Below, piece by piece: positions 26,021 through 29,612 of a stretch of 64,000 bases of DNA; the first letter of the stretch is position 1; the number at the start of each line of letters is the position of its first letter. Origin of the DNA: Sulfuricaulis sp. (GTDB taxonomy: Bacteria > Pseudomonadota > Gammaproteobacteria > Acidiferrobacterales > Sulfurifustaceae); contig NZ_JBGQKW010000002.1 in assembly GCF_041499725.1 (NCBI RefSeq), positions 37,643 to 101,642 on the forward strand, read 5' to 3'. The notes below the pieces were generated by a model that saw only the letters and a program-made list of their open reading frames with translations, ran no database searches and was not told the DNA's origin. The translations under genes and the position numbers were made by a program.

Positions 26021-27532
26021 ATGGAATTCATCGTCAAAAGCGGCACACCCGAAAAACAGCGCAGTGGTTGCATCGTGGCCGGCGTGTTCGAATCGCGCAA
26101 ACTATCCACCGTGGCTCACCAGATCGACGAAGTCTCCGGCGGCGCCATCAGCAGTATCCTGCGTCGCGGCGATCTCGAAGGCAAGCCGGGGCAAACCCTG
26201 CTGCTGCACAATATCCCGAACCTCCCCAGCGAGCGCGTGCTGCTCGTGGGCTGCGGCAAGGAAAAGGAATTCAACGAGAATCGTTATCGCGATACCACCG
26301 CCAAGGCCGTGTCGGTTCTCAAGGACACCGGCGCCAGCGAGGCGACTTCCTATCTCACCGAACTCGATGTCAAAGGCCGCGACATTTCCTGGAAAGTCCG
26401 CCAGGCGGTTGAAGTCATGGAAGCGGCTTTATACCGATTCGATCAACTCAAAAGCAAACCGAACAACAGCCGGCGCGCGTTGCGCCGCGTGGTGCTGGCG
26501 GTGCCGAAACGCAGTGATCTCGGTCCCGGCGAACAGGCGATCCGGGAAGGCCGGGCGATCGCGGAAGGCATGAAACTCGCGCGCGATCTCGGCAACCTCC
26601 CCGGCAACCTCTGCACGCCCGCTTACCTCGCCGAACAGGCGACCGAGATCGGCAAGCAATACGGACTCAAGATCACCGTGCTGGAAAAGGACGACATGCA
26701 AAAGCTCGGCATGGGCGCGCTGCTGTCGGTCGCGCGCGGCAGCCGACAGCCGCCGAAGCTGATCGTGCTCGAATACCTCGGCGGCAAGGAAGGCGAACCG
26801 CCCGTGGCGCTGGTCGGCAAGGGACTGACCTTCGACGCCGGCGGCATTTCGATCAAGCCCGCGGCCAACATGGATGAAATGAAGTACGACATGTGCGGTG
26901 GCGCCTCCGTGCTCGGCGCGTTGAAAGCCGCGGCCGAACTGAAACTGCCGCTCAATATCGTCGGCATCATTCCCAGTTCGGAAAATCTTCCGGATGGCGA
27001 CGCCAACAAGCCCGGCGACATCGTCACCAGCATGTCCGGCCAGACGGTGGAAGTGCTGAACACCGACGCCGAGGGCCGGTTGATCCTGTCCGACGCGCTC
27101 ACCTACGCCGAACGCTACAAGCCGGCCGTGGTGATCGACATCGCCACCCTCACGGGCGCTTGCGTGATCGCGCTGGGCGCCCATGCCAGCGGACTGCTCG
27201 CCAACAACGACCAGCTGGCGCGCGAGATTCTCGGCGCCGGAAAATACACCCACGACCGCGCCTGGCAACTGCCGCTGTGGGACGATTACCAGAAGCAGCT
27301 CGACAGTAATTTCGCCGACATGGCCAATATCGGCGGGCGCGAGGCCGGCACCATCACCGCCGCGTGCTTTCTCGCGCGCTACGCGAAAAACTTCAAATGG
27401 GCGCACCTCGACATCGCCGGCACGGCCTGGAAAACCGGCAAGGAAAAGGGCGCGACCGGCCGGCCGGTGCCGCTGCTGGTGCAATTTCTCATCAACCGCG
27501 CCCGTCACGACGGGGCGGAAGCGGCGGCATGA
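26021..27532 (+). CDS. pepA: Leucyl aminopeptidase PepA
   Basis: [26 protein letters not shown]17 motifs. Confidence 0.97.
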
Positions 27533-27975
27533 CGCGCGTTGACTTCTACCTGCTCGACCGCGCCACCGAAGGCGGCAAAGACGCCGCTGTCTGCAAGCTT
27601 GCCCACAAGGCCTTCCGTCTCGGCCACCGCATCTATATCCTGACCCACGACCATGAAGGCGCGCAACGTCTCGACCGGCTGCTCTGGACCTTCAGCGCCG
27701 GCAGCTTCATTCCGCACGGGCTCGGCGCGCGGCAGGCCGACGTCGACCTGCCGGTTCTCATCGGCCGGGATGAGCCGCCGGCGGCGCATGAAGACGTGCT
27801 GATCCAGCTCTTGCCGCAGGTGCCGGAGTTTTTCAGCCGGTTTCAACGCGTGGCGGAAGTGGTGGATGGCAGCGATGACGAAAAGACGCTCGCGCGCGAG
27901 CGCTTCCGTTTCTACCGCGACCGCGGTTACGCGCTGCAGACACACAAGCTTGAACTGGAATCGGCCGGAGCCTGA
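27529..27975 (+). CDS. holC: DNA polymerase III chi subunit
   Basis: [36 protein letters not shown]. Confidence 0.93.
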
Positions 27976-27978
27976 CCC

Positions 27979-29559
27979 ATGACCACCCAGGATCCGAAAT
28001 ACAAGCACAAGCCTTCGGAGAAACACACGCTCGAAGAAGTGCTGAAATCCCTTCAGGACCTGATCCGCAACGACCTGCTGGATAACAACCGGGCGGCCGT
28101 GGAAAAATCCGGCTCGGCACCGATCCCCAGCGAAGAAAAACCGCCGCGTGAACACACTCCCCCCGTGCGCGAAGATTTTGCGCCGGTAAATCCCGCCGCA
28201 GGTCCGGTCAATCTCGATGCGGTCATGCGTTCCCTGAAAGACCTCGTCAGCAACGAACTCAATGTCGGCGGCGAACCCGCGGCGGCTGAAGAATCGCCGC
28301 CTGCGCGAACCGAAGACCATGAGACGAGTGAAAACCCAGCGGATGAATTTGTGCCGCTGGACGAGGAGCTGACCTTCGAGGAGTCGATGGAAATCGTTCC
28401 GCCTCCACGCACCGCACCGACCATGCCGGAGATTCCCGGGGAAATTTCCGCCGAGATGCTCAGTGAACCTGAAGCGGAAGCCGCACCCTCACCTCCAGCG
28501 CCGGTACCGGAAGCCGAAGCAAATATCGCTCCGGGCACGCAACATCAGCTTCTGCTCGAGGAAACGCCGCCAGCGGCGACCGAACCTGAACCGTCGACAC
28601 CGGATCTCGCGCCAAACCTGGAACTTGAGCCGGAGACGGATGGCATCGCGCCGGAAATGACGCAGGAAACCGCGGTGCAGGACTTTCCGGATGACTCCGG
28701 CGATGCGCTGCCTACCATCGACGTGGAAGAAACCTTTGACGAGAACGCCTATTTTGAGGCCGCGGCAAAGCAGACAGAAGCTTCCTCGACCGATACACAG
28801 GAAACTCAGGAGATCATTTTATCTGCGCTCGACGCATCTCTGGAGCCGGAAACTGCACTGCCCGCGAACAGCGAAGCACAGGTACCCGCGGAAAATACCG
28901 CTCCCACATCGGAATCGGCTTCCGGCAAACCTGAAATCAAACTGGAAATCGCCGATGAACCGGCCACGGAAAATTTACTGAATATTCCTTCAGTGGACTT
29001 CGATGTCGTCGAATTTGAGTTGCCGCGTGAAGAACCACCGCCACCGCCTTCCCTGACGATCGAGGCACCCGCGCCGGCCGATGAATCATCGCCGATTACG
29101 ACCGATGAAACTTTGGCACAGGAAATAACGCTTGATCCCGGACCCTTGGAAATACTGTCGCCGTCTGAGGAAATAAAGCCTGGTGCCACGCCCAAAGTGG
29201 AAAAAATCCCGGACACCGCTACAACGCCTCCCGCCACGGGTGAAACGCATGCAACGGCAACGGTCACGGAACCCGCCACACCGGAGACAACGGAATCCAT
29301 CGATCTCGACGATATTCCGGTGCTGCGCGAGGTGGTCGCACCGCCCGCCGGCAGCGCACTGGCCGGCGGACCGGTATCACCGAGCACGGAACCGCCGTTA
29401 CCCGCGCCGGACCGCGCCCGCGATATCGTGGTCCGTGCCGTGGCCAAGCTCAATGTCGAGATGCGCAAGTCGGGCGGGACCGGTCTAGATACCAAGACCA
29501 TCCTCCGGTTGCAGCAGTTGATACGCCGGGAGTTGGAAAAAGACGGAGAAAAAAGTTAA
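27979..29559 (+). CDS. Acidic Pro/Glu-rich disordered protein with terminal helices (PopZ/DUF2486-like)
   Basis: 526-aa ORF; helices TLEEVLKSLQDLIRND and LDAVMRSLKDLVSNE, long E/P/A/T-rich linker, DDIPVLREVV, C-terminal helices. Confidence 0.7.
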   Translation: MTTQDPKYKHKPSEKHTLEEVLKSLQDLIRNDLLDNNRAAVEKSGSAPIPSEEKPPREHTPPVREDFAPVNPAAGPVNLDAVMRSLKDLVSNELNVGGEPAAAEESPPARTEDHETSENPADEFVPLDEELTFEESMEIVPPPRTAPTMPEIPGEISAEMLSEPEAEAAPSPPAPVPEAEANIAPGTQHQLLLEETPPAATEPEPSTPDLAPNLELEPETDGIAPEMTQETAVQDFPDDSGDALPTIDVEETFDENAYFEAAAKQTEASSTDTQETQEIILSALDASLEPETALPANSEAQVPAENTAPTSESASGKPEIKLEIADEPATENLLNIPSVDFDVVEFELPREEPPPPPSLTIEAPAPADESSPITTDETLAQEITLDPGPLEILSPSEEIKPGATPKVEKIPDTATTPPATGETHATATVTEPATPETTESIDLDDIPVLREVVAPPAGSALAGGPVSPSTEPPLPAPDRARDIVVRAVAKLNVEMRKSGGTGLDTKTILRLQQLIRRELEKDGEKS

Positions 29560-29612
29560 AAGTGAAATATGGCGCATAAGCCATTAGAATCTCGCCCGTT
29601 TTAACACTCACT

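Follow-up and report, generated by a model that had tools for sequence, protein, structure and literature searches.

Among bacterial condensate scaffolds, PopZ is the one studied best, and the locus described here raises the question of whether a protein of the same kind is encoded in a gammaproteobacterium. In the 64,000 nucleotides of Sulfuricaulis sp. that were analysed (the window), an open reading frame on the + strand (27979-29559) immediately precedes valS and encodes an acidic protein of 526 aa, labelled X in the following. From the sequence alone, it had been read as a candidate PopZ-like scaffold, an analogous or divergent polar hub. We examine here whether X is a real gene, to which family it belongs, and whether its likeness to PopZ is best explained by a scaffold function, by common ancestry, by convergence or by a link to its other neighbour, holC.

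A conserved acidic gene between holC and valS

X lies in an operon of the order pepA, holC, X and valS, with lptF and lptG divergent upstream of the operon and a gene for an FKBP-type isomerase downstream:

26021..27532, + strand: pepA, leucyl aminopeptidase, gene 1 of the operon (Pfam Peptidase_M17, E=4e-128)
27529..27975, + strand: holC, DNA polymerase III chi subunit, 148 aa (PF04364, E=1e-43; ATG at 27529; AlphaFold2 pLDDT 83-98)
27979..29559, + strand: X (open reading frame, conservation, composition and AlphaFold2 model)
29613..32531, + strand: valS, valyl-tRNA synthetase (Pfam tRNA-synt_1, E=2e-153)

The pepA stop and the holC start overlap in the sequence ATGA. Only 3 nt separate the holC stop from the ATG of X (TGA-CCC-ATG), in one reading frame, with a GGAG 9 nt 5' of this ATG, and X is, judging from the sequence, translationally coupled to holC. 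The start codon is supported by the conservation of the protein from residue 1 onward in 107 homologues. At the other end, valS begins 53 nt past the X stop, with a weak sigma-70-like site at 29562-29590 between the two genes. We also observed that stop-codon readthrough from holC into X would yield a chi-X fusion of 676 residues (window 27529-29559), and that in another genome (locus L068) holC and its small neighbour likewise lie in one frame. The sole Rfam/ARAGORN match in the 64-kb window was a tRNA-Arg (CCT) at 1050-1125.

Pfam and NCBIfam searches with the whole of X and with its termini gave zero matches, as did sequence and profile searches of the PDB. A word-indexed protein search recovered 172 homologues, all labelled 'hypothetical', from Sulfuricaulis, 'Muproteobacteria' and allied metagenomes. 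Across the 107 full-length homologues, two N-terminal modules (N1 and N2), the C-terminal 50 residues and six motifs (PLDEELT, PGEI, GTQ, LPTIxVEExFD, SVDF and LDDIPVLxEVVAPPAG) were invariant or nearly so, while the linker was free to vary in both sequence and length. The hydrophobic 'stickers' singled out earlier, LPTIDV, IPSVDF and IPVLREVV, fall on these conserved positions (LPTIDVEE at residues 244-251, IPSVDF at 336-341, IPVLREVV at 446-453). When residues 1-97 of X were searched exhaustively against 1.84 billion representatives, the N-terminal module was found in 90 clusters, starting within the first 35 residues in every match, in proteins of 52 to 1,088 aa. Distant members of the X type, whose matched N-terminal stretch is about 40-60% identical, retained N1, N2, DDIPVL and the C-terminal hairpin. 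Three contigs carrying such genes were inspected, and in both of those with a recognisable upstream gene the X-type gene was directly 3' of holC, with a 2-nt spacer in one and a 4-nt overlap in the other.

Many overlapping spurious open reading frames surround X on both strands, as would be expected if X were no genuine gene and only a chance open frame within GC-rich DNA. The probability of this is negligible: a chance frame accounts neither for 172 homologues with invariant termini and a variable linker, nor for the conserved operon position, nor for the annotation of relatives as proteins by NCBI in cultured strains, and we consider it refuted by the conservation pattern. The gene is real, and its product is a highly acidic protein, largely disordered, whose terminal helices are conserved.

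The E/P/A/T-rich character reported earlier for the 526-aa frame was borne out by measurement (E 14.4%, P 14.1%, A 11.4%, T 8.9%). With a pI of 4.09 and a net charge of -75, X is, by acidic fraction as well as by proline fraction, the top-ranking protein of its proteome (first of 1,822 proteins of >=200 aa). The structure was modelled with AlphaFold2 on the family alignment of 107 homologues, pLDDT being given as means over blocks of 10 residues. The modules are as follows:

27991..28104, + strand: N1 module, residues 5-42, with the invariant DPKYKHKPSEKHTLEEVLKSLQDLIRNDL and a helix at 18-42 (invariant columns; block-mean pLDDT up to 90)
28168..28269, + strand: N2 module, residues 64-97, REDFAP...GPVNLDAVMRSLKDLVSNELNVG, with a helix at 79-92, duplicate of N1 (alignment, AlphaFold2, window scan)
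28270..29298, + strand: acidic Pro-rich disordered region, residues 98-440, net charge -72, 24% D+E, 16% P (composition, AlphaFold2)
28351..28383, + strand: short motif VPLDEELTFEE, residues 125-135 (P126 L127 D128 E129 E130 L131 T132 in >=90% of homologues)
28429..28461, + strand: short motif EIPGEIS, residues 151-161 (P153 G154 I156 nearly invariant)
28705..28758, + strand: ALPTIDVEETFDENAYFE, residues 243-260, copy 1 of a hydrophobic-Pro-x-hydrophobic-acidic motif type (I247 V249 E250 E251 invariant)
28741-28836, + strand: weak helix, residues 255-286, after the ALPTIDVEETFDENAYFE motif (block-mean pLDDT 52-72)
28984..29019, + strand: IPSVDFDVVEFE, residues 336-347, copy 2 of the same motif type (V339 D340 F341 nearly invariant)
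29296..29355, + strand: family signature SIDLDDIPVLREVVAPPAGS, residues 440-459, common to the small holC-valS proteins described below (alignments; hhalign P=2.2e-6)
29398..29556, + strand: C-terminal helical hairpin, residues 474-526, helices 477-497 and 505-525, net charge +4 (block-mean pLDDT 85-87; near-invariant columns)

In the model, confident helices were predicted at residues 18-42 and 79-92 (block means reaching 90), a further, short one at the IPVL motif, and a confident hairpin at 477-497 and 505-525 (block means 85-87), in agreement with the helical C-terminus that had been noted; we regard this hairpin as a candidate self-association domain. The pLDDT was below 50 at 319 of the 526 residues, which is consistent with disorder; about 287 of these lie among the 343 residues of the linker (98-440). 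The pair of similar N-terminal amphipathic helices described earlier, HTLEEVLKSLQDLIRND and VNLDAVMRSLKDLVSNE, also held up: they are identical at 7 of 17 residues (BLOSUM62 score 39), and not one of the 829,958 other 17-residue windows of the proteome matched the first helix as well as the second did, so that the pair is a true internal duplication.

An unnamed family in Gammaproteobacteria

The region upstream of the valS start (3.5 kb) was inspected in 119 gammaproteobacterial genomes, mostly from separate families. We found holC upstream of valS in 89 of them; the two genes abutted with no gene between in 33 of these 89, and a small acidic ORF stood between them in at least 32. The two genes are directly adjacent in E. 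coli K-12 as well. The small ORFs encode 74-230 aa, apart from two that have expanded independently to 308 and 531 aa. They have in common D-[IVL]-P-[VT]-L-x-[ED]-[VI]-[VI]-x-P-G as a signature, then a linker, and lastly amphipathic C-terminal helices, the end of which is often LPx[IL][IV]. In about eleven of the small proteins there is an N-terminal LxxALxSLxxLL-type helix; many members have no N-helix. No Pfam domains and no names were found for them, and the cultured examples WP_147275180.1 (Thioalbus denitrificans) and WP_126454014.1 (Sulfuriflexus mobilis) are both annotated as hypothetical proteins.

X fits the slot of this family, being placed between holC and valS and codirectional with them, and carries its signature (DDIPVLREVVAPP, residues 444-456, nearly invariant in the 107 homologues), the only motif of the DIPVL type in the proteome of its host. 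When the small family was aligned with the X family by hhalign, the match covered the IPVL motif and the C-terminus, with P=2.2e-6 (probability 89%). The shared slot, the signature and this alignment thus identify X, on sequence grounds, as an enlarged, three-module form of a widespread and unannotated gammaproteobacterial family of acidic disordered holC-valS proteins.

The two independent expansions occur in two other gammaproteobacterial families, at loci L043 (1169-2095; 308 aa) and L044 (1815-3410; 531 aa), and contain repeated motifs, DIPELTPVS twice in the former and IPVLSEAV with IPILDQP in the latter. In the genome G140, where holC was undetected anywhere, a 180-aa ORF 5' of valS (locus L085, 2903-3445) ends in ...NRVAELLPKLLKEHL, resembling the C-terminus of the family. 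A scan of named genomes with the back-translated DIPVLxEVVxPG motif returned 15 loci, mostly from uncultured Gammaproteobacteria, and none from model organisms. Our literature search found no published study of the holC-valS family, and nothing relevant on PA3833.

A comparison with DUF2486 (PF10667; Pfam cut-off 22 bits), an uncharacterised proteobacterial family, had also been proposed. This pointer was apt: PF10667 was the most recurrent Pfam match among the small relatives, weakly matching 4 of 38 (best E 0.0025), but it gave no match on X. The match that was inspected (L072) covered model positions 7-35 only, on a DIPVLxDVVxPG motif. Since no bona fide DUF2486 protein was found for comparison in the 551 genomes sampled (sets of 151 and 401), the link to DUF2486 rests on this short motif.

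Resemblance to PopZ and its possible causes

PopZ, the pole-organizing protein Z of Alphaproteobacteria, corresponds to DUF2497 (PF10691, gathering score 27 bits; PDB 6XRY). Its gene has been noted next to valS in Caulobacter and Agrobacterium (PMC5686542), and we found valS just downstream of popZ on the same strand at 21 of 30 alphaproteobacterial PopZ loci, in agreement with the common adjacency asserted in the sequence-only reading. X, directly before valS, codirectional with it and 53 nt away, occupies this popZ slot. PopZ consists of an N-helix, an acidic Pro-rich disordered region and C-terminal helices (PMC9512792), and this three-part layout and composition are matched by X in the AlphaFold2 model and in the residue counts.

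The sequence comparisons gave weaker signals. PF10691 had no match to X at E up to 10, with the whole protein or with the termini alone. In profile-profile comparisons, N1 and N2 aligned to the first helix of PopZ (H1) with P=0.011 and P=0.029, respectively, and the C-terminal hairpin to PopZ H2-H3 with P=0.0021 (probability 13%); over all, P ranged from 0.002 to 0.03, with probabilities below 15%, and the weak matches were colinear. The resemblance of the N-helix to PopZ H1 is thus a mixed result: N1 is identical to the H1 consensus (MEEILASIRRII type) at 6 of 17 positions, and only 3 of the 829,958 other proteome windows match that consensus as well, but the hhalign P values are modest. A profile of gammaproteobacterial N-helices aligned to H1 with P=0.006. 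One small subfamily matched the PopZ C-terminus, ...LRDHLDERLPELVAEAL... to ...LKEWLDANLPAVVESLV..., with P=3.4e-4, and when its profile was compared with 2,773 proteins (2,745 of the proteome and 28 PopZ), PopZ sequences filled 24 of the 36 highest ranks, with an unchanged register throughout. The hhalign probability against PopZ was below 40% in all comparisons, those of small subfamilies included. In a reverse control, in which the PopZ profile was compared with X and 900 random proteins of its own proteome, X ranked 17th of 901 by hhalign and near the bottom by HMMER.

A six-frame search of the host genome with PF10691 returned only PheA (E 0.59; contig C29:19208-20308, locus L001 883-1986), which we take, from its translated sequence, to be the chorismate mutase/prephenate dehydratase. 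It is the best match in that genome to both DUF2497 and the PopZ profile, through CREWLDANLPGVER, a sequence that by chance reproduces the PopZ C-terminal motif, and was rejected as a PopZ relative; short-helix matches at this level thus occur by chance. A weak gammaproteobacterial DUF2497 match in the genome G513 was rejected as well, being FtsY. Partial PF10691 matches (positions about 30-74, E 1e-4 to 1e-7) were also seen in G185, G227, G215, G330 and other genomes, from several families of the same phylum, in ORFs of up to 994 aa. These long ORFs are unlike the typical PopZ of 150-330 aa, and they may carry the PopZ C-terminal module in other architectures.

Given the weak sequence statistics, it is chiefly the position of the gene and the architecture that speak for homology, and we consider common ancestry of X and PopZ plausible but unproven, with the balance close to even or slightly below. 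Our best guess on function, held at somewhat less than even odds, is that X is a PopZ-like, self-associating multivalent scaffold. The positively charged hairpin (474-526) would oligomerise, the acidic Pro-rich region of ~340 residues would serve as a repulsive spacer displaying multivalent short motifs (LPTIDVEE, IPSVDF, DDIPVLREVV and PLDEELT), and the duplicated N-terminal amphipathic helix would recruit client proteins; we infer in the same way the self-assembly, client binding and localisation of X. The invariance of termini and motifs beside a diverging linker was counted as constraint and speaks for this scaffold. The coupling to holC, absent in alphaproteobacteria, speaks against it, as it hints at a partner other than those of PopZ. 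If the holC-valS family is related to PopZ or works alike, condensate or polar organisation by such scaffolds would occur much more widely than is currently supposed.

A less probable explanation, which nevertheless deserves serious attention, is that X belongs to an independent disordered family that came to resemble PopZ by convergence and has a function apart from polar organisation, perhaps that of an acidic spacer, a chaperone-like factor or a regulator tied to the expression of valS or pepA. Amphipathic helices joined by an acidic linker are easily evolved, the PopZ statistics fall within the noise range of the reverse control, and the motif in PheA illustrates how a PopZ-like match may arise by chance. 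The DIPVL motif of the family has no clear counterpart in PopZ, the N-terminal helix is absent from many members, and no Pfam link was found. Convergence leaves unexplained, however, why the sole protein with the layout and composition of PopZ occupies the popZ slot before valS, and why its weak PopZ matches are colinear at both termini, with a register that is constant over all PopZ sequences.

The conservation of the holC coupling also suggests a possible link of another kind, to the replisome. The C-terminal tip of SSB is the ligand of chi and of other SSB-interacting proteins, and the pockets that receive it in chi-SSB complexes use its free C-terminal carboxylate. The X family could accordingly be a partner of chi (HolC) or of the SSB interaction network that tethers or regulates chi, its acidic D-D-I-P-V-L mimicking the SSB tip DDDIPF; this is the main rival to the scaffold function, although we consider it rather unlikely. 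Besides the 3-nt spacing of holC and X and the short spacer or overlap in distant relatives, holC directly precedes all 32 family genes found upstream of valS, and none was present at the 30 valS loci without holC; where holC and valS are separated, a family gene stays by holC in 2 of 17 genomes (G552 and G012). The SSB of the host ends in EFDDDIPF, and X holds the only DDIPVL-type motif of its proteome. The motif is nonetheless internal in X and has no free C-terminal carboxylate, the 33 genomes with holC abutting valS have no family gene, and popZ is not adjacent to holC in alphaproteobacteria. Because holC and X share a frame, the natural readthrough fusion was chosen for modelling with AlphaFold2, aligned with HolC homologues only. 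The HolC part folded confidently, and the model, which affords no view of contacts, gave no sign of docking at the motif; confidence did not rise there (block-mean pLDDT 39-44), which counts weakly against an interaction since the X part had no alignment. The psi subunit (PF03603) was present in none of the 33 genomes that carry a family gene and in 2 of the 33 in which holC abuts valS, an uninformative comparison.

The two links may also be combined in a more speculative proposal, to which we attach little credence: PopZ would be one branch of a pan-proteobacterial superfamily of valS-linked scaffolds, in which the gammaproteobacterial branch is co-translated with chi, its repeated acidic I-P-V-L motifs mimic the SSB tail, and a self-assembling acidic hub gathers chi or SSB-binding enzymes. 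If this were true, condensate-type organisation would be tied to DNA replication.

X beside the SSB tip, its small relatives and PopZ

In both the SSB tip (DDDIPF) and the motif of X, I-P and a hydrophobic residue come after a run of acidic residues, and the X gene directly follows holC, which encodes the protein that binds the SSB tip; the tip is C-terminal in SSB, whereas the motif of X is internal.

With the small holC-valS proteins, X shares the operon slot, the DIPVLxEVVxPG signature and the C-terminal amphipathic helices that follow it, and an N-terminal helix like that of X is present in some small members. X is much larger (526 aa against 74-230 aa), with a far longer linker and, unlike the small members, a second N-helix and extra conserved motifs. 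Its hairpin, VRAVAKLNVEMRK...ILRLQQLIRQELEK, is distinct and does not carry the terminal LPxLV motif of many of them.

PopZ is confined to alphaproteobacteria according to the literature (PMC9512792), whereas the host of X is a gammaproteobacterium, and popZ is not beside holC in alphaproteobacteria, whereas the X gene is coupled to it. The N-helix is duplicated in X, unlike in PopZ, and the linker of about 340 aa is ~3.5x longer than that of Caulobacter PopZ (about 90) and contains conserved motifs, including the family signature DDIPVLxEVVxPP, also unlike in PopZ. At the C-terminus, X has two helices and no WLDxNLPxxVE, in contrast to the three-helix oligomerisation domain of PopZ, which bears this motif. 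The reading of X as PopZ-like thus stands for the slot, the layout and the composition, but the PF10691 match, the WLDxNLPxxVE motif and the third C-terminal helix are absent. What the two proteins have in common is a gene immediately 5' of valS on the same strand, an N-terminal amphipathic helix, apparently of the type (S/T)-(M/L)-E-E-(I/V)-L-x-S-(I/L)-x-x-(I/L)-I-x-x-D, an acidic Pro-rich disordered middle (21% D+E and 14% P in X, 16-35% D+E and 5-22% P in PopZ), a helical C-terminus and a pI of about 4. With its 340-residue linker, doubled putative client helix and three repeated motifs, X would offer a natural extreme for the effects of linker length and valency on assembly.
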